DNA of 32,000 nucleotides from Candidatus Harpocratesius repetitus (GTDB lineage Archaea > Asgardarchaeota > Lokiarchaeia > Sigyniarchaeales > Promethearchaeaceae): NCBI GenBank assembly GCA_021498095.1, contig JAIZWK010000001.1:1080001-1112000 (forward strand), read 5' to 3'. The notes under the pieces are model-generated. The model was given only the letters and a program-made list of their open reading frames with translations, searched no databases and was not told the origin of the DNA. Positions 21,704-31,997 of this stretch are shown piece by piece; the stretch's first letter is position 1, and every line of letters begins with the position of its first letter. A program made the translations under genes and the position numbers.

Positions 21704-21747
21704 TTTAACAAAATATGGAAAATTAAAAAATAAATCAGGTGAGCAAC

Positions 21748-22101
21748 ATGACTGACAGTAATGAAAACACAAAAAATCAATCCGAAATTGCTTCAAAAGA
21801 TGAATTTCGACCTAAATACCGAATTACTCCAAAATACGGAGTTTATACAGAAGATGATAAAGTCATTCTCCAGATCGCAATTCCAGGGGTTAAAAAAGAG
21901 AATATTCATATGAAAGCTCTTAAAGATTACTTCACACTTCGTGCACAGCGTGATGAAAATACAGTGTACATGTTAGATTTAGACTTTGGGGTCAAAATTG
22001 AACCCGAAAAAACTTCCTCACGTTATGAAGAGGGATTACTTCGACTTGAATTCAAGAGATTCAATCCTTTGGAACATGCATACAATGTTCCAATTCAATA
22101 A
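21748..22101 (+). CDS. Small heat-shock protein (Hsp20/alpha-crystallin) paralog 1
   Basis: QIAIPGVKKENI and YEEGLLRL motifs. GGTGA SD at 21738-21742 favours ATG 21748 over GTG 21739. Confidence 0.85.
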   Translation: MTDSNENTKNQSEIASKDEFRPKYRITPKYGVYTEDDKVILQIAIPGVKKENIHMKALKDYFTLRAQRDENTVYMLDLDFGVKIEPEKTSSRYEEGLLRLEFKRFNPLEHAYNVPIQ

Positions 22102-22180
22102 TCTTTTTTCTTATCATGCACCCTTATAAATTCATAGAAATCTAAAATATAAAATACAAACAATCAACAGGTGAAGAAAA

Positions 22181-22540
22181 ATGGCATTAGTAGAAAATGA
22201 AAAAAGTCAAGCTATGCAAAAATCCGAAAATCAAGAAGAAAAAGATGAAATTTACTATCGTGTCTTCCCAGACATGAGACGTCGAATTAATTATGAAGAT
22301 AATACTATCTATATCGAAGTTTCGCTTCCTGGAGTTAAAAAGGAAGATATTACACTTAAAGCCTTACCTACTTGGTTCCACTTAGTAGGAAAGCGTGGTC
22401 ATATGGAATATTCCGCCAATCAATCATTTGGTGCAGAAATTGTACCTGAGAAGACTGAAGCAAAATATGACAATGGATTACTCCAAATAACAGCTCACAT
22501 CCGAGATCCAATGGATGATGCAAAAGAAATCGAGCTTTAA
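22181..22540 (+). CDS. Small heat-shock protein (Hsp20) paralog 2
   Basis: EVSLPGVKKEDI, AKYDNGLLQI, C-terminal EIEL, and an AGGTGA SD. Confidence 0.88.
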   Translation: MALVENEKSQAMQKSENQEEKDEIYYRVFPDMRRRINYEDNTIYIEVSLPGVKKEDITLKALPTWFHLVGKRGHMEYSANQSFGAEIVPEKTEAKYDNGLLQITAHIRDPMDDAKEIEL

Positions 22541-22638
22541 TTCTCTTTAATCTTTTTTTATCGAAAATTTTCAGTAAATTACACAACAAATGAAATAATA
22601 CAATAATATTGAAAAAATAATAAAAAAGGTGATAAAAA

Positions 22639-23004
22639 ATGTCAATGGTGGAAAAAAAGGAAGATATGGTGGAAAAAAAAGATGATATCAAAGAAAATGA
22701 AGAATCTAAAATCAAATATCGGATTAGACCAACTCGTTACATTAACTATGATTGTGTAGATAATTCTTGGGAGATGGAATTTCATTTACCTGGTGTAGCA
22801 AAAGAGAATGTCAAATTTAAAATCCTAAAAGATGCATATTCATTAGAAGCAACTCGTGATCAAGCCCTTTACCATACAAGTGAATATTTGCCATTTGAAA
22901 TTGATTTAGATAGTGTAAAAGCGGAGTATAATAACGGACTTTTATATGTTTCTGGAAAGATTAAGGACCCCATGGCAGATGCTGTCGAAATTAAGTTAGA
23001 TTAA
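22639..23004 (+). CDS. Small heat-shock protein (Hsp20) paralog 3
   Basis: EFHLPGVAKENV, AEYNNGLLYV, C-terminal EIKL, and an AGGTGA SD. Confidence 0.88.
   Translation: MSMVEKKEDMVEKKDDIKENEESKIKYRIRPTRYINYDCVDNSWEMEFHLPGVAKENVKFKILKDAYSLEATRDQALYHTSEYLPFEIDLDSVKAEYNNGLLYVSGKIKDPMADAVEIKLD
22645..22686 (+). repeat. 21-bp tandem duplication in the hsp20-3 N-terminus (MVEKKED MVEKKDD)
   Basis: atggtggaaaaaaaggaagat followed by atggtggaaaaaaaagatgat. Confidence 0.8.
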
Positions 23005-23201: not shown

Positions 23202-23230
23202 AATTCTAAAATTCTTTGGAGAATACATTT

Positions 23231-24289
23231 ATGCAAACACGCCCTAAAATTCTATTAATTGGAACGGGTGGAACCATCACTGCTCAAAAGATAGATGGTG
23301 CTTGGACTCCAGGAAAGTTTTCTGAAATTGATTTACTGCATTTTATTCCAGAGATTGAATCTTTGGCTCAGATTGATACTATAAATCTGTTTAACATAGA
23401 TTCTGTATGCATGCAGCCGAAATATTGGGTTACAATTGCCCAAACAATTCAAAATGAATATGATAATTACGATGGTTTTGTAATCAGCCATGGAACCGAC
23501 ACTTTGCATTACACTGCTTCAGCCCTTTCTTTTTTAATCCAGAATCTCACAAAACCCATCGTCCTAACAGGATCAATGGTTCCACCACACGTAATTGGAA
23601 CTGATGCCCGTCGAAACTTAACTGATGCGGTAAGGGTGGCTGCAGAAACGAATATTCATGAAGTAGTAATTGTTTTCAATCGAAAAATCCTAAGGGGAAA
23701 TCGTACAAAAAAATTCAGAGAGGTTGAATTCGATGCATACCAATCTATCGGATTGCAGCCTATTGGAATAATTGAACAAGATATTCGTTATACAGGAGTT
23801 TCTTATTTTAATCGATCATTATCTGATCGCCCTCATTTCTTTGATAAAATGGAATTAGAAGTCTGTATTCAAAAGATTACACCAGGTTATAATCCAGAAA
23901 TTATTGCAAAACTTCGAGAAATTGGTTACAAAGGTATTGTGACAGAAGGATTCGGTGCAGGTAATATTCCTATCTATGAAAATTCGCTAATTGAAGAAAT
24001 TGAAGCCGCTACAGATGCAAAAATTCCTGTAATAGTTTGCTCACAATGTGCTATCGGATTCTCATGGATGGATTTATATGAATCTGGAAAAATGGCGTTG
24101 AATGCTGGAGCAATTCCTGGATATGATATGATTTCTGAGACAGCAATGGTTAAACTGATGTGGATTTTGGGAAATTTTCCCAATTTCTCGATGCAGGAAA
24201 TTCGCGCCAAGATTTTAGAGGATGTTGCAGGAGAAATATCTAACATTAAATCTCCAAAAGAGAAACGGGCTTGGGAATATGCTTTTTAA
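23231..24289 (+). CDS. ansA: L-asparaginase, type I (cytoplasmic)
   Basis: GTGGTIT, HGTDT, PIVLTGS, NRTKK and EGFGAGN motifs; lacks the GatD N-terminal domain. The ORF track starts at TTG 23216; ATG 23231 follows a GGAG. Confidence 0.9.
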   Translation: MQTRPKILLIGTGGTITAQKIDGAWTPGKFSEIDLLHFIPEIESLAQIDTINLFNIDSVCMQPKYWVTIAQTIQNEYDNYDGFVISHGTDTLHYTASALSFLIQNLTKPIVLTGSMVPPHVIGTDARRNLTDAVRVAAETNIHEVVIVFNRKILRGNRTKKFREVEFDAYQSIGLQPIGIIEQDIRYTGVSYFNRSLSDRPHFFDKMELEVCIQKITPGYNPEIIAKLREIGYKGIVTEGFGAGNIPIYENSLIEEIEAATDAKIPVIVCSQCAIGFSWMDLYESGKMALNAGAIPGYDMISETAMVKLMWILGNFPNFSMQEIRAKILEDVAGEISNIKSPKEKRAWEYAF

Positions 24290-24413: not shown

Positions 24414-25868
24414 TTATCGATATGCATCAAAACGAGGATTAGGATCGAGTTTTTTCATCATTTCTTGCAATCCTGGTTCAACCCCCTGCATGAACATATA
24501 TCCCTTATTTGGCTCTCTTTTTGTAATTTCTCCACGAAGATTGGTTGTCATAATTTTTCGAACTTCTTCATAATTACGAGTCTGACCTAAAGTCCAAATC
24601 ATTTTTGAGTAAGCTGCAGAAGGTAACATATTTGCACCTTCAATCACACCTCGTGCCAGCATATCTCTACCAGTTTCATATACACGTAGATTGGTAAAAC
24701 CAAATAAAGGTTCAACAACAATCACAACTGGAATTTCTTCTTCTTGGGCTCGTTCCAAAGCATTAAACAAATAAGAACTAACATGACCCAAGCCTGTACC
24801 AATAATAACCATGCCGTGATATTTTTTGTCGATAACAGAATGTATCAAATCTTCATCCATGCCCGGGTAGAAATAGAGCATGGCAACACGTTCATCGATT
24901 TTGTCATTTAACCAAGTATCTTCAATATTCCCTCTTCGCTTAACATCTTGCTTAAGCCAAGTAATATTTTGATTAGCATCGATATAGCCTAAGGGAACGT
25001 CACTCAAAGTGCGAAAGGCATCTCGTCTGCTGGAATGCATCTTCCGGACTCGTGTTCCTCGGTGAATAAGGTTATAGGAGTCACTAGTGTTTCCGTGCAT
25101 AGAAACTACTACTTCGGCTAGATCAGCATGACCCGCAATAGTACTTGCATCAATAATATTCAACGGGCCGTCACTGGAAGGTCTGTCGCTGCTTCGTTGA
25201 GATCCAACACATACAATTGGGCGGGCTAAATCTTGAAACATAAAAGATAGTGCTGAAGCTGTAAAAGCCATTGTATCTGTTCCATGCCCGATAATGACTC
25301 CATCAGCGCCACTCTCAAATTCTTTCATAATTTCACGAGCAGTTTTAACCCAATATTCTGGTTTGAAATTTTCACTTAAGATTCCATAAATTTTTCGAGG
25401 TGTAAGATTACAAATATCCATTAATTCTGGAACGGCTGAAAATAACTCTTCTGGAGTGAATGCGGGCAGAACTGCACCAGTACGATAATCCAACCGACTT
25501 GCAACTGTCCCTCCTGTGCCAAGAAGCGTTACATTGGGTAAATCTGGTTTATATTTTACTTTTACTTCGGGTAACTTGTATTCTCCTTTACGAAAGCCTA
25601 ATTCTTCAATAGTACAATCATCAGTAATTTTTACTCCCACATTATAGCCTGTATCGACTTTGATTACCAAGTAATCTTCTGACGTGTGTTCACTTCGTGG
25701 TAGGATTACTCCTTCATACACTGCATTACCACGAGAAACCTTAACAACACTCCATACACCAACTCCTTCTCGAAGTAATCTTTCTCGGAGTTTGCCACGA
25801 TAACCGGTGGGTTCTTTTTCTATAGAAATATCTTTATTTTTTTGAATTGGTTCTGTCATTTGATTCAC
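24414..25868 (-). CDS. gatD: Glu-tRNA(Gln) amidotransferase subunit D, copy 1
   Basis: N-terminal YEGVILPR...GYNVGV domain, GTGGTVASRLDYRTGAV, HGTDT, GSQRSSDRPSSD and RVRKMHSSRRDAF. The start may be ATG 25859 (GGAGG upstream); the GTG at 25868 overlaps the gatE stop. Confidence 0.95.
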   Translation of the reverse strand: MNQMTEPIQKNKDISIEKEPTGYRGKLRERLLREGVGVWSVVKVSRGNAVYEGVILPRSEHTSEDYLVIKVDTGYNVGVKITDDCTIEELGFRKGEYKLPEVKVKYKPDLPNVTLLGTGGTVASRLDYRTGAVLPAFTPEELFSAVPELMDICNLTPRKIYGILSENFKPEYWVKTAREIMKEFESGADGVIIGHGTDTMAFTASALSFMFQDLARPIVCVGSQRSSDRPSSDGPLNIIDASTIAGHADLAEVVVSMHGNTSDSYNLIHRGTRVRKMHSSRRDAFRTLSDVPLGYIDANQNITWLKQDVKRRGNIEDTWLNDKIDERVAMLYFYPGMDEDLIHSVIDKKYHGMVIIGTGLGHVSSYLFNALERAQEEEIPVVIVVEPLFGFTNLRVYETGRDMLARGVIEGANMLPSAAYSKMIWTLGQTRNYEEVRKIMTTNLRGEITKREPNKGYMFMQGVEPGLQEMMKKLDPNPRFDAYR

Positions 25869-27886
25869 ATTCCTCCTGTAATTTTTTGATAAACAAAATC
25901 TGCTACCCGTTTCCCTGATATTGCATGATTAATTTTCCTCATAATCAAACCGGTTATTTGATTACATTGATATTGTAAATCATCAACACTTATCTTTACA
26001 GATTCTCCTTTTTTTGTATCTGAGTTGGTATTTTGGATTTGATATTTTCTTGATTTTCGCTGAAATGCATTAAAGGCCTCAAGTGCGTAAGCATATTCCT
26101 GTTCTAATTGGTTTTTTAATTGATTTTCATCGATTTTCTTTGCTCCAAAGCTGTCTAAAATTTGATTGAGCGAGAAAGTGGGGTGCTTGAGGGTAGAAAT
26201 AACTAAATCTTGTAAAAGTGCCCAATCATAGCGCTGATTTTGGGCCATTAACAATAATTCTGTTATTTTTTCATTCGAAAGCTTAAGTACATCAATTCCA
26301 TCCCGTTTTAATCCTAAAAGCGTCTCTTCTAAGAAGTGATAGACTCGTTTAGGTGGGATATGATGAAGATTCACCAAACGTTCAAATAATTCTATTCGTT
26401 CATGGCGGATTAATTCTGTCAACTGGTTAAATGTAATTCCATCTTTTCCACAATATTCTTTTTCATATTCCCAAGGGCGTTTTCTGACTTTGGAAGCCAA
26501 TTTTTCAATTGCATCCATGTCCATATCAAGGACTGGAGTATCTGTATCAGGATATAATCTTTCTTTTCCATGGATTACACGTAGAAATTCAGAATTTCCG
26601 TTGGGAAGTGCTTTTCGGGTCTCTTGGGGAACTCCATCAAATGCCATTTTAATACGTTCAATTACTTTTTTCATTGCATGAATTGTCCATTTTTGAGATC
26701 CTAAAGCGATCACATATGCATCATTTCCGCCGCATCCAAGAGTTTGAGTAATTTCATTATGTAATGAATCCGTGATACGTTGTTTAAAGTAATTATCTTC
26801 TGAAATGAAATTTGATTCAATCGCATCGGAGTGAAAGAGGTGTTTGATAGGGACTCCACTAATTAGCGATGCCTTTTCTAATATATCTTGGCCAAAATCT
26901 TTTCCTGGTTGTTCTTCTCTTCCCAAAATACCTTGAAGTTTGGGTAATCTAATTCCCATTATGATTGCCTTCTCTGGTATATCTGAAAAAAGATGGCTTA
27001 TATCTAAATATGTATGTTCAAAATCTTCTTTATGAAGTCCCCTTTGCTTTAATTCTTGAGCAATTTGTATAAGTGTATCTTGCCTGCAAATTTCATGACG
27101 GCATAATCTATCAAAATTTTCTAAATCTTGCACACCTTTCAATTCTACTCGGTCTCCCCCTTTAATACTGATATTTACATCTTGTCGGGCAGAACCAATT
27201 CCACGTCGTCCAATACCACTCAATCGCAAGATTAAACCTATAGTTTTAGCAGTTTTAATTAATTCTTCAGGGGTCGAAACATCCAAATAATCAGTAATTA
27301 CTTCTACTAATGGGATTCCTAATCGATCAAGGTTATAATAAACTGTTCGACCATTATTTTCAGTGCGAATTTTTCGAGCACTGTCTTCTTCAACTGTTAA
27401 ATTTGTGATTTTAATCTTTTTTCCATCAACCATTACCCATCCATCTCGGGCTACAATGGTTGTTCGTTGAAATCCAGTGGTAATACTTCCATCTAGATAC
27501 TGCTTCCGTGCAAAAATTATTTCATCTACCAATGCTTGACAATTTAACCAATGGGCTAATTCATAGCCACTCATTAAGGCTTCTTCATCGGGGTGCATAG
27601 GTGGTTGCTCATCTTGTTCATAGATGCAATCGCATTTTTCAAAAGCATGATATATAACCCGATAACCTTTTTCATATTCAATCAGCATTCCGGGGTCAAA
27701 ATCGCCCATTTCACCCAATACTGGTCTGAAATAGCGTTCAAATCGGTAATCTGGTGGAGTGGCGTTGGAAACCATGATTGGGGGGCAATGGCAAAAGAGT
27801 TTTCGTCGGGCATTGATTTGGTGATGAATTTCGAGTCCGGCATGAAAACCAATTTTAGTAAAATCAATTTTAGTTGGATCAAGCAT
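25865..27886 (-). CDS. gatE: Glu-tRNA(Gln) amidotransferase subunit E, copy 1 (divergent)
   Basis: GLEIH, KLFCHCP, DGSITTGFQRT, EEDSAR, DRLGIPLVE, RQDVNISIKGGDRVELKGVQ, insertion (GAD) domain, and RLYPDTD. Confidence 0.92.
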   Translation of the reverse strand: MLDPTKIDFTKIGFHAGLEIHHQINARRKLFCHCPPIMVSNATPPDYRFERYFRPVLGEMGDFDPGMLIEYEKGYRVIYHAFEKCDCIYEQDEQPPMHPDEEALMSGYELAHWLNCQALVDEIIFARKQYLDGSITTGFQRTTIVARDGWVMVDGKKIKITNLTVEEDSARKIRTENNGRTVYYNLDRLGIPLVEVITDYLDVSTPEELIKTAKTIGLILRLSGIGRRGIGSARQDVNISIKGGDRVELKGVQDLENFDRLCRHEICRQDTLIQIAQELKQRGLHKEDFEHTYLDISHLFSDIPEKAIIMGIRLPKLQGILGREEQPGKDFGQDILEKASLISGVPIKHLFHSDAIESNFISEDNYFKQRITDSLHNEITQTLGCGGNDAYVIALGSQKWTIHAMKKVIERIKMAFDGVPQETRKALPNGNSEFLRVIHGKERLYPDTDTPVLDMDMDAIEKLASKVRKRPWEYEKEYCGKDGITFNQLTELIRHERIELFERLVNLHHIPPKRVYHFLEETLLGLKRDGIDVLKLSNEKITELLLMAQNQRYDWALLQDLVISTLKHPTFSLNQILDSFGAKKIDENQLKNQLEQEYAYALEAFNAFQRKSRKYQIQNTNSDTKKGESVKISVDDLQYQCNQITGLIMRKINHAISGKRVADFVYQKITGGM

Positions 27887-28032: not shown

Positions 28033-28443
28033 TTAAAGTGCTTGGAAATTCTTGAATTTAATATCGATTAGTTGATTGACTTTTTCTTCAATTTTCTTAG
28101 TATCAAAATTTGAAATATTCAATTGGGCTTTATTTTCTATATAAAGAGTGGTTGCAATCTCTCGTATAGACTTAATTTTGAACTCTCCCTTTAGATAAAA
28201 TACAAAATAGATTGATTTTTCAGCAAAAAAAAGATCTTTCGCAATTACAACCATGTATGTCAAATTTTCTCCCGAACCGAAAGTAATTGTTGCAATATCT
28301 TGCTTGAAAAGCTTTCTTCCCAGACTTCCAACCGCTGATACCATTCCACTCAGAAGAACAGCGTTAATTTCAATAAAACCTGCAAATGAACGAGTATAAA
28401 AGGGAAATCCTTGTGAATCACAAATTTGTATGCACAAAATCAT
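28033..28443 (-). CDS. Longin/roadblock-like small domain protein (Asgard type)
   Basis: 136 aa: N-terminal beta-hairpin ILCIQICDSQGFPFYTRSF, then helix LLSGMVSAVGSLGRKLF, the pattern typical of Asgard longin-like domains. Pattern recognition only. Confidence 0.6.
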   Translation of the reverse strand: MILCIQICDSQGFPFYTRSFAGFIEINAVLLSGMVSAVGSLGRKLFKQDIATITFGSGENLTYMVVIAKDLFFAEKSIYFVFYLKGEFKIKSIREIATTLYIENKAQLNISNFDTKKIEEKVNQLIDIKFKNFQAL

Positions 28444-28554: not shown

Positions 28555-30606
28555 ATGGGAAAAAGCATTGATTATAACGCGGTTGGGTTAAAATGTGGTA
28601 TTGAAATCCACCAACAGCTCGATTCTGCTACAAAACTCTTCTGTGCTTGTCCAAATCAACTTCAAGGTACGCGCGAACCTGATTTTCGAATTTTACGAAA
28701 GCAACGACCTGTTTTAGGGGAAGAAGGAAAATTCGATGAAGGTATGTTATCTGAATTTCTTAAGGGCGGTTCTGTCATTTATGAAGGCTATTATGATTGT
28801 ACGTGTACCTATGAATTGGATGAGACACCTCCTTTTAAATGTGATGAAGAGTGTATTGATATTGCGCTTGAGATTTGCGCTTTATTTAAAATGAATATTG
28901 TGCGTGAAATGCATGTTTGTCGGAAAAATTATGTTGACGGAAGTGTTCCTGCTGGATTTCAGAGAACTATGGAAATAGGTTATGATGGTAATCTGGATCT
29001 AAAAAATGGAAAAAAAATTGGAATTGAAAACATTTTTTTGGAAGAAGATGCAGCAAGGCGAATAAAAACACAAGGAAAGACTTCTTATTTTCGCGTTGAT
29101 AGATTAGGTATTCCTTTAGTGGAAATTACTACTACTCCTGATATACATGATCCAGAAGAAGCGAAAGAAACAGCTTATCGAATTGGGTTATTGCTGAGAT
29201 CGACGAATAAGGTCAAACGAATTATTGGGTCAACACGCCAAGATATTAATGTTTCAATTGCAGGTGGAGAACGAATTGAGATTAAAGGAGTGCAAAAATT
29301 GGATTGGATCCCAGAACTGATTCACAATGAAGTAATTCGTCAGCAAAAATTAATCGACATTAAGAATATTCTCAATCAAAAATCAATTTCACCAGATGAT
29401 ATTAGACGAGATCCTGTTGATTTAACGAAAATCTTCCAAAAAACAGAATGTCGGTTTGTAAAAGCTGGTATTAAACGAAAAGAAAAGTTCGTTGGTATGA
29501 AAATACCCGGATTTCATGGTATTTTTGGAACAGAGGTGCTTCCTAATCGAAGATTTGGGACAGAAGTTGCAGATAAAGTCAAAGTAATTGCAGGCTTGAA
29601 AGGATTAATTCATTCTGATGAAAATTTACTGGAGAAATATAATTTTTCACCGGAAGAAATCGCTCAAACTCGTCAAAAATTGAATATTCAAAACGATGAT
29701 CTTTTTATTTTATTACTGGCTTCAGGACAGGCATTAGAAACTGCTTTAGATGTAATCGTCGAAAGGTGTAAACAGGCATTCATTGGTGTGCCTGAAGAAA
29801 CACGACAAGCTAAAGAAGATGGGACTCATGTATTTTTACGGGAGTTGGGTGGTGAAAAGCGATTATATCCAGATACCGACACACCTCCTATCCTACTTTC
29901 AGAAGATCGCATAAAAAATATTAAAGAAAACATAGGGCCATATCCATGGGATATTATTGATGAATATGCGAAAAAGTATAATTTAGATCCTTTTCTGGTT
30001 GAAGATCTGATTATGGATGGAAAAATGGCTCTATTTAATGAGCTTATCGCAAAATATCCTGAAAATCCTATGTTAGTCATTCGGACAATTACTGATATGC
30101 TTAAAGTACTGCATAGGGAAGAAAAAAATATAAATACGCTCAAACCTTCGCATTTTCATGAATTATTTGCTGGTCTAAAGCAAGGAATTATTGCTAAAGA
30201 GGCAATGTTAGGTGTTTTACGAATTTGGACCGATTTTCCAGAAATTTCTCTAAAACAAGCAAAGAAAAAAATGGGAATAAAAACTACGGATTTAACTAAG
30301 TTAGATGGTATTATTGATGAGCTAGTTCAAAAAAATATGGAACTCATTAAGACAAGAGGCCGAGGTGCAATTGGGCCCTTAATGGGAGATCTAATGAAGA
30401 TTGTTGGGAGAGGTGCTGTTGATGGTAAGGTTCTATCTTCTAAATTGGCTCAAGCTATTGGTAAATTGATTTCCCAAGGAAACTCTACATCAGCAAATGA
30501 GAAAACAAAAAAGAAACAAAAAACAAAAAAACCTACAAAAAAAATTTCTCAATCCCCAAAAAATAACCCAAAGAAAACCACAAAAACAATTAAAGGTGAA
30601 AAATAA
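28555..30606 (+). CDS. gatE: Glu-tRNA(Gln) amidotransferase subunit E, copy 2 (closer to canonical, Lys-rich tail)
   Basis: GLKCGIEIHQQL, KLFCACP, DGSVPAGFQRT, EEDAAR, DRLGIPLVEITT, RQDINVSIAGGERIEIKGVQ, RRFGTEVAD, RLYPDTD, and a Yqey-like GPLMGDLMK...VDGK. Confidence 0.95.
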   Translation: MGKSIDYNAVGLKCGIEIHQQLDSATKLFCACPNQLQGTREPDFRILRKQRPVLGEEGKFDEGMLSEFLKGGSVIYEGYYDCTCTYELDETPPFKCDEECIDIALEICALFKMNIVREMHVCRKNYVDGSVPAGFQRTMEIGYDGNLDLKNGKKIGIENIFLEEDAARRIKTQGKTSYFRVDRLGIPLVEITTTPDIHDPEEAKETAYRIGLLLRSTNKVKRIIGSTRQDINVSIAGGERIEIKGVQKLDWIPELIHNEVIRQQKLIDIKNILNQKSISPDDIRRDPVDLTKIFQKTECRFVKAGIKRKEKFVGMKIPGFHGIFGTEVLPNRRFGTEVADKVKVIAGLKGLIHSDENLLEKYNFSPEEIAQTRQKLNIQNDDLFILLLASGQALETALDVIVERCKQAFIGVPEETRQAKEDGTHVFLRELGGEKRLYPDTDTPPILLSEDRIKNIKENIGPYPWDIIDEYAKKYNLDPFLVEDLIMDGKMALFNELIAKYPENPMLVIRTITDMLKVLHREEKNINTLKPSHFHELFAGLKQGIIAKEAMLGVLRIWTDFPEISLKQAKKKMGIKTTDLTKLDGIIDELVQKNMELIKTRGRGAIGPLMGDLMKIVGRGAVDGKVLSSKLAQAIGKLISQGNSTSANEKTKKKQKTKKPTKKISQSPKNNPKKTTKTIKGEK

Positions 30607-31997
30607 TGGTAGAAGAACAAGATATGAAGGATTACAGTGGATATAAACCCAATTCTGTTGCAATTATGAAGAAATTTGGTGTGAAATTATGGTATAAAAT
30701 CGAAATATTGTCTTCTAAAGGAACTGTTCAAGGTGTTGTCCTCCCCCGTAATAAATTTGCACCAGATGGATTTGTGGAGATTAAGCTTAAAAATGGTTAT
30801 AATATTGGGGTTCCTCTGGATAAAAATACTAAAATTAAGGTTATTGGTGAAGTTCCTCCCATGAAAGTTTCATTTGATCAACATATTCAACCAAAAAACA
30901 AAAATCTTCCAACTGTGTGTCTTTTAGGTACAGGGGGAACAATTGCTTCTCGATTGGATTACACAACAGGAGCAGTTATTCCAGCCTTTGAACCTGGGGA
31001 ATTATTTACCGCTGTCCCAGAACTGGCAAAAATTAGCAATATTGAAACTGAAGTTGTTTATCAACTCCTTTCTGAAAATCTTACACCCCAGAACTGGCTC
31101 GAATTAGCGAAAAAAATAGTAGAATTAGCGAAAACTAATATTGATGGTATTGTTATTGCCCATGGAACAGATACACTAAGTTATGCTTCTGCCGCTCTTT
31201 CTTTTCTTTTGAAAAATGTCTCAATTCCAATAGTTTTGGTTGGTTCTCAACGATCAAGTGATCGACCATCTTCTGATGCAGCTTTAAATTTAATTCATGC
31301 AGTTACTATTGCCAGTAAAGCAAATATTGGAGAAGTTGTTGTCTGTATGATGGGTTCCTCAGCACACGATTATGGATTCATTCATCGAGGTACAAGAGTG
31401 AGAAAAATGCATTCTTCTGCAAGACACACCTTTAGATCTATTGGAATTACACCTTTAGGTATGATCCGAGACGATGAAATTAAATACTTTTCTACAGAAA
31501 TCAAGCCAAGAGATTCAAAAAATCGTAAAAAAATGGAATGTTGGTCATCAATTGAAGAAAAAGTGGCTCTTATTTATTCCTATCCTGGAATGAAGGGCGA
31601 TATTCTTGATTTTTACTTGAATTCAGGATATAAAGGCATAGTATTTGCTGGTTCAGGGCTTGGACATTTACCAAAGACAATGTATCCTGCTTTGAAACGA
31701 GCATATGATGCAAAGATTCCGATATTGATGACTGTTCAAACGCTTTGGGGGTATACTGGAATGGATGTCTATGAAAGTGGCCGAGAATTGCAAGATTTAG
31801 GTGTTATTCCTGGAAAGAATATGCTCCCTGAAGTAGCATTTACCAAAATGTGTTGGGCATTAGGTAATTTCAATGAATATGAGAAGATTAGAGAAGTATT
31901 AACAACCAATATTGCTGGTGAAATTACATCAGGAGAATCAATGAATGGTTTTCAAATTTTTCAAGGCGTAGAACACACAATTTCACCCAAAGAATAA
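30606..31997 (+). CDS. gatD: Glu-tRNA(Gln) amidotransferase subunit D, copy 2
   Basis: GYNIGV, GTGGTIASRLDYTTGAV, HGTDT, GSQRSSDRPSSD and RVRKMHSS. TAATG stop/start overlap with gatE2. Confidence 0.95.
   Translation: MVEEQDMKDYSGYKPNSVAIMKKFGVKLWYKIEILSSKGTVQGVVLPRNKFAPDGFVEIKLKNGYNIGVPLDKNTKIKVIGEVPPMKVSFDQHIQPKNKNLPTVCLLGTGGTIASRLDYTTGAVIPAFEPGELFTAVPELAKISNIETEVVYQLLSENLTPQNWLELAKKIVELAKTNIDGIVIAHGTDTLSYASAALSFLLKNVSIPIVLVGSQRSSDRPSSDAALNLIHAVTIASKANIGEVVVCMMGSSAHDYGFIHRGTRVRKMHSSARHTFRSIGITPLGMIRDDEIKYFSTEIKPRDSKNRKKMECWSSIEEKVALIYSYPGMKGDILDFYLNSGYKGIVFAGSGLGHLPKTMYPALKRAYDAKIPILMTVQTLWGYTGMDVYESGRELQDLGVIPGKNMLPEVAFTKMCWALGNFNEYEKIREVLTTNIAGEITSGESMNGFQIFQGVEHTISPKE

Follow-up and report, generated by a model that had tools for sequence, protein, structure and literature searches.

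The 32,000-nucleotide stretch of Candidatus Harpocratesius repetitus analysed here (the window; GenBank assembly GCA_021498095.1, contig JAIZWK010000001.1, positions 1,080,001 to 1,112,000) carries two divergently oriented gatE-gatD pairs, of which gatE1/gatD1 lies on the minus strand and gatE2/gatD2 on the plus. Comparison with canonical GatDE, the glutamine-specific archaeal amidotransferase that corrects mischarged tRNA, showed that the GatE1-GatD1 pair (GatDE1) is apparently intact as an amidotransferase, and that both of its predicted tRNA-reading sites are changed throughout the clade to which it belongs. GatE1 thus belongs to the GatE family while lacking the canonical features for reading tRNA(Gln). 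The weight of the observation lies in this clade and not in the polar insertion of GatE1, which a preliminary description of the same DNA had put forward. Our best explanation, which is tentative, is that GatDE1 may be an amidotransferase of broadened specificity, which forms Asn-tRNA(Asn) as well and takes the place of GatCAB.

Family membership and catalytic parts of GatE1

The gene gatE1 (25865-27886, minus strand) encodes 673 residues, and its product scored above the curated GatE models (PRK04028, 484.7 against a cut-off of 456; TIGR00134, 416.1 bits against 319.6). It is not a GatB, because its GatB model score of 116 bits falls far short of the required 315, and because the protein has the insertion domain and a GatD partner. 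The Mg-binding residues His21, Glu166 and Glu195 are intact, aligned with His15, Glu157 and Glu184 of Methanothermobacter thermautotrophicus GatE (PDB 2D6F), and they are invariant in 41/41 members of the clade. The insertion domain, which resembles that of aspartyl-tRNA synthetase (AspRS), was aligned and folded at approximately residues 276-415; Pfam GAD was not detected in it, and three canonical residues are lost. The cognate glutaminase subunit is encoded by gatD1 (24414-25868, minus strand; 484 residues; TIGR02153, 520 bits), the start of which overlaps the gatE1 stop. Its catalytic (glutaminase) motifs are intact and it falls in a clade of its own in the GatD tree, and the GatD partners of the other GatE1-type proteins form a matching clade, again with intact motifs. 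From these comparisons, GatE1-GatD1 is predicted to work as an ATP-dependent amidotransferase, and it belongs to a second GatDE clade of long standing.

Among named relatives, a Ca. Harpocratesius protein is closest to GatE1 (89%), and proteins of Promethearchaeum, Lokiarchaeum and Heimdall archaea come next. The window is part of a single-contig genome of 4.36 Mb, and an independent assembly (P0002) has a GatE1 ortholog that is 89% identical, is also 673 residues long and lies in the same gene order. The insert of this ortholog is equal in length, which rules out an assembly or frameshift artefact.

The C-terminal tail

GatE1 and GatE2 share 37% identity, and their BLASTP alignment ended at GatE1 residue 590, within the Yqey-like tail (residues 584-673; 25868-26137, minus strand), for which helices were predicted at residues 587-619, 634-651 and 658-670. 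With Pfam GatB_Yqey, GatE2 gave 54.3 bits over model positions 2-147, whereas GatE1 reached only 15.3 bits where 27 are required, with a match that ended at residue 596. We then compared 58 canonical Asgard GatE with 41 GatE1-type proteins. In GatE1 numbering, the canonical residues are M645, R653, G654 and D657. Each occurs in 52-56 of the 58 canonical proteins (M645 56/58, R653 52/58, D657 56/58); they are largely lost across the 41, and GatE1 lacks them. The GXXAXGX motif carried by the canonical GatE tail (PMC2811023) is missing from the GatE1 clade, but its strict form occurs in just 17/58 canonical Asgard GatE, with A or S at the fourth position in 51/58. This analysis showed that the tail change marks the clade and is not a local accident.

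The tail can still be aligned to canonical tails. A profile of GatE1-type tails matched canonical GatE tails with an hhalign probability of 97% (E 2.8e-11), against 82% for Asgard GatB tails, and its best PDB match was residues 542-629 of Pyrococcus abyssi GatE (1ZQ1, E 0.003), with YqeY (1NG6) matching weakly (E 0.21). In the AlphaFold model the tail is a helical bundle in which the predicted local distance difference test score (pLDDT) falls under 50 only at residues 619-631, and a second model was similar. A fold search with the tail only gave YqeY 8XJE (Z 5.3, root-mean-square deviation 2.8 over 55 residues), tied with unrelated helical proteins and not above background, and a Foldseek search with the tail alone gave no match. 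The tail has its own motif (NQITG...GKRV, residues 642-661; 25904-25963, minus strand), in which Thr645, Gly646, Met649 and Gly658 are invariant in 37 Loki and Heimdall orthologs, and the ratio of non-synonymous to synonymous substitution rates (dN/dS) was 0.03-0.38 for GatE1-type tails and 0.12-0.32 for canonical pairs. Since the tail is alignable, carries an invariant motif and has such dN/dS values, it is best described as having diverged from the canonical tail, with which it is homologous, and as still being under selection. Simple decay of the tail was not supported by these dN/dS values, and acquisition of the tail from GatB was ruled out, the profiles being closer to canonical GatE, with no convergence on GatB. 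The preliminary description was right that GatE2 keeps the canonical tail motif, which we found from residue 601 onward (30355-30387) in a tail that passes Pfam. It was also right that GatE1 has a polar insertion followed by an altered segment. Its term "rebuilt" for the GatE1 tail fits the loss of canonical residues but overstates the change in a domain that is still homologous.

Other tRNA-reading sites and conservation across the clade

Two further sites are altered across the clade. In the helical domain (residues 554-558; 26213-26227, minus strand), the canonical K-E-A (53, 52 and 54 of 58) is lost. In the cradle, the loop at residues 225-229 (27200-27214, minus strand) occupies the position of the loop near base pair 1-72, which has a first-base-pair role in GatDE (PMC2811023); here canonical K-V is replaced by I-G (36/41 and 34/41), two downstream basic residues are kept, and I225 matches Asgard GatB. 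A second cradle segment carries the clade-typical V-I-H at residues 437-439 (26570-26578, minus strand; 40/41, 41/41 and 41/41).

The clade is distinct (Shimodaira-Hasegawa-like approximate likelihood ratio test 100) and covers five Asgard families, its Loki members grouping with one Heimdall family, and it also includes three genomes that bear the label of other archaea; both trees were quick searches with no outgroup, and no direction of transfer is claimed from them. The cradle of GatE1-type proteins had dN/dS of 0.008-0.11. Between families, cradle identity was 56-71% for the GatE1 type versus 44-50% for canonical GatE, and tail identity was 17-31% versus 33-37%. In one GatE1-type family the tail is neutral to acidic. 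In two separate branches, one Loki genus (G004, G009) and two of the other archaea (L212, L213), the tail is missing outright; these proteins (L073:7313-9034, L074:14756-16486, L212, L213) have 573-609 residues, and gatD still comes after the gene. In the loci compared, no neighbour other than gatD was conserved across families.

As a separate observation, a tRNA-His(GUG) gene lies near the gatE1 start in 11 loci of one Heimdall family (L051, L052, L054-L056, L060, L062-L065, L084), which is probably synteny inside that family. The canonical gatE matches of family f24 (L098 of G095, G086, G103) contain an internal TAG, which may reflect an intron, a split gene or recoding.

The polar insertion

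The insertion itself is a polar to basic stretch of 27 residues (610-636; 25979-26059, minus strand) at the site of the canonical GXXAXGX motif. It lies in a linker of 63 residues, versus 35 in 55/58 canonical Asgard GatE, a difference beyond chance. Elsewhere in the clade this linker has 46-49 residues in other members of the family, 38-43 in one Heimdall family, 38-40 in another and 30-32 in two further families. The long polar stretch is confined to this genome and its nearest relative. Between GatE1 and its 89%-identical ortholog in P0002, the stretch is 33% identical while its flanks are 83-86% identical, and residues 613-639 differ by 18 non-synonymous and 2 synonymous codons. The centre is the disordered part of the AlphaFold model (residues 619-631). 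Thus, the insertion was shown to be a disordered, nearly neutral spacer, ordinary by itself.

Glutamine and asparagine routes in carrier genomes

This genome has an asparaginyl-tRNA synthetase (AsnRS) gene adjoining gatD2, an AspRS that fits the archaeal non-discriminating model, an AsnA-type asparagine synthetase and one glutamyl-tRNA synthetase (GluRS); GatB and glutaminyl-tRNA synthetase (GlnRS) were looked for in it and neither was found. Another route to Gln-tRNA (canonical GatE or GlnRS) is present in 35/40 carriers of GatE1-type genes, including all five single-contig genomes. The five carriers without one are fragmented assemblies, and GluRS was also not found in two of them. GatB was present in 0/34 Asgard carriers versus 20/46 non-carriers, counts in which related genomes are not independent, and with three further carriers included there was no GatB or GatCAB in 37/37 tested. 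Two genomes of a single genus show opposite states: GatB is present in G006, where no GatE1 was found, and G010 has GatE1 but lacks GatB. AsnRS occurs in two single-contig Heimdall carriers that lack GatB, the AsnA-type synthetase and AsnB, whereas related Loki genomes with AsnRS and without asparagine synthetases keep GatCAB.

In this genome tRNA-Gln has the first pair A1-U72 and tRNA-Asn has G1-C72, and both are 73 nt long; the two tRNA-Glu have a longer D-loop and a length of 75 nt, and tRNA-Asp was not located. Co-evolution with an altered first pair of tRNA-Gln was ruled out, as A1-U72 is kept in the carriers examined. GatDE1 was also ruled out as a substitute for glutamine synthetase, which is present in 77/80 genomes, and as an enzyme needed for lack of AsnRS, which the carriers have.

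Two side observations concern the synthetases. Archaea have been stated to lack GlnRS (PMC9499178), but in three Heimdall-related families GlnRS scored above the TIGR00440 cut-off in 26/48 genomes searched (for example L330:498-2453, L332:236-2161, L331 and L333, in genomes G084, G252, G273 and G153). The GlnRS of G084, the one Heimdall genome checked, is of the bacterial type by its best PDB matches, and the GlnRS of two families has approximately 100 extra N-terminal residues resembling archaeal GluRS. In these GlnRS-bearing genomes tRNA-Gln still has A1-U72, and in two of them its gene adjoins glnS. In the family of the host, G003, G005 and G008 have GatB and gave no archaeal-type AsnRS match; where it is intact, they have a longer class II synthetase of approximately 600 residues.

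Possible substrates of GatDE1

The preliminary description held that GatE1 reads a different tRNA or substrate. Altered recognition is plausible because the canonical tail and helical residues are lost and the loop is changed across the clade, another Gln route exists in 35/40 carriers, and GatCAB is absent from 37/37; the insertion as its cause did not stand, the stretch being disordered, unconserved and near neutral. We tentatively favour a broadened amidotransferase. As their intact residues suggest, GatD1 would release ammonia from Gln or Asn, and GatE1 would phosphorylate and then amidate a carboxylate. GatDE is restricted to tRNA(Gln) by two features, its first-base-pair loop and a Gln-specific motif in the tail. 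Both would have been dropped, and a coarse filter on D-loop size would have been kept, so that 73-nt tRNA(Gln) and tRNA(Asn) would be admitted and 75-nt tRNA(Glu) rejected. The substrates would be Asp-tRNA(Asn) and probably also Glu-tRNA(Gln), like bacterial GatCAB, which takes both. We propose that the loss of both checks would account for the retention of the pair beside canonical GatDE, for its replacement of the latter where GlnRS exists, and for the missing GatCAB. In two carrier families the linker has approximately 38 residues, as in Asgard GatB (15/16), versus 35 in canonical GatE.

Several observations weigh against the broadened enzyme. In the clade, 13 positions common to canonical GatE and GatB are lost and only 2 show the opposite, and the tail profiles match canonical GatE better than GatB. 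The members without a tail (G004, G009, L212, L213) would have no D-loop filter. The GatE insertion domain has been reported to block AspRS binding, and this domain is retained in the GatE1 clade. With AsnRS and an AsnA-type synthetase, this genome needs no tRNA route to Asn, and 26 non-carrier Asgards have neither GatB nor GatE1. The link of GatE1 to missing asparagine synthetases is weak (16/34 versus 2/26 at a loose post-hoc threshold, 18/34 versus 10/26 at curated cut-offs), and the discriminating or non-discriminating signature of AspRS, tried as a predictor of GatE1, showed no correlation.

Three other explanations were weighed. GatDE1 might be an accessory or proofreading Glu-tRNA(Gln) amidotransferase that takes the tRNA of GatE2 with a weaker or different elbow grip, relies on A1-U72, and was spread by transfer and differential loss. 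At least one GatDE is kept in every carrier family, even with GlnRS; one Heimdall family has the GatE1 type alone (12/12); and genomes of genus g53 have one GatE type or the other, with both in one only, which suggests interchangeability. The tRNA-Gln of GlnRS-bearing carriers keeps A1-U72, the first pair could still be read by tail-less forms, and the five fragmented genomes gave no other Gln-tRNA route. However, eight Loki genomes of four genera keep both pairs at approximately 37% identity under purifying selection, one Heimdall family retains GlnRS, canonical GatDE and GatDE1 together, and the loop adjoining pair 1-72 is itself altered, so we consider the accessory role somewhat unlikely. 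It is unlikely that GatDE1 can do without a whole tRNA, no longer serves tRNA(Gln) at all and amidates a carboxylate other than that of a tRNA, for example on a free amino acid, on a residue in a peptide or protein, or at a short RNA end. Archaeal AsnA evolved from AsnRS through loss of the anticodon domain, and by analogy a similar shift may be imagined here. The better-conserved cradle and worse-conserved tail, the loss of the tail in two branches, the loss of residues common to GatE and GatB tails, and the neutral to acidic tail of one family would fit such a shift. On the other hand, retained tails have dN/dS similar to canonical ones and their own invariant motif, there is no conserved partner gene besides gatD in the loci compared, and the prevalence of glutamine synthetase leaves no such gap to fill. 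Finally, the insertion could itself be a new tRNA-contact surface that sets a new specificity, for example a Lys-rich reader of the variable loop like that of GatB. It sits where GatB has an extra helix and a Lys-rich motif (PMC2811023), and in several Loki orthologs it is basic in its N-terminal part; given that neither its length nor its sequence is conserved, even in the closest ortholog, and that its centre is disordered in both models, we regard this as very improbable.

Neighbouring genes in the window

The canonical copy gatE2 (28555-30606, plus strand) encodes 683 residues and is followed by its partner gatD2 (30606-31997, plus strand), with asnS just past the end of the window. The C-terminus of GatE2 has a Lys-rich extension of approximately 40 residues past the canonical tail (the last 130 or so bases before 30606), which is also found in close relatives at variable length. 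Between the two gatE copies lies a gene of 136 residues (28033-28443, minus strand) with no match in Pfam or NCBIfam; among the loci compared, its linkage was seen in this genus alone. Convergent on gatD1 is a type I asparaginase gene (23216-24289, plus strand), the linkage of which is limited to this genus, and upstream of it are three tandem HSP20-family genes (21739-23004, plus strand).

Comparison with known systems

In the reviews consulted, GatDE is the archaeal enzyme specific for Gln and GatCAB the one for Asn, and one review calls the division between them an open question (PMC2330236). Our literature search found no publication that describes a second GatDE in Asgard archaea or a GlnRS in Heimdall archaea. 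A natural GatDE that is altered at the two tRNA-reading sites and was not found together with GatCAB in any of the genomes tested would show whether tRNA identity alone sets this division of labour. Named matches in the clade include Promethearchaeum syntrophicum and Ca. Lokiarchaeum ossiferum, both of which are in culture and have a canonical copy beside the GatE1-type one, which gives an internal control. If GatDE1 acted on a non-tRNA carboxylate, it would be the first enzyme of the GatB/GatE fold outside translation, and the repeated tail loss with a better-conserved catalytic cradle would be the trace of a shift away from tRNA.

With archaeal GatDE (M. thermautotrophicus, 2D6F; P. abyssi, 1ZQ1), GatDE1 shares the fold, the domain order (cradle, AspRS-like insertion, helical, tail), the gatE-gatD pairing and the Mg-binding and glutaminase residues, and it passes the curated cut-offs. 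It differs in being a second copy next to a canonical pair or GlnRS, in a tail without the canonical residues, which is missing in some members, in a variable linker, and in the replacement of helical K-E-A and loop K-V. A bacterial GatDE-like branch (L214-L287; Bacteroidales, Myxococcota, Zixibacteria, Cloacimonadota and others) is likewise an accessory form of GatDE whose tail is loosened, and most of its hosts have GlnRS or GatCAB; however, it is a large separate clade, sister to a canonical Heimdall GatE in the quick tree, and it keeps the K-V loop. With GatCAB, the archaeal Asp-tRNA(Asn) amidotransferase and, in bacteria, the dual-specific form (3IP4, 3KFU), GatDE1 would share the same job. 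The two did not co-occur in 37 carriers, and I225 and the 38-residue linker resemble Asgard GatB. Unlike GatCAB, GatDE1 uses an asparaginase-type GatD and not the amidase GatA, keeps the insertion domain, and has a tail that does not converge on that of GatB.

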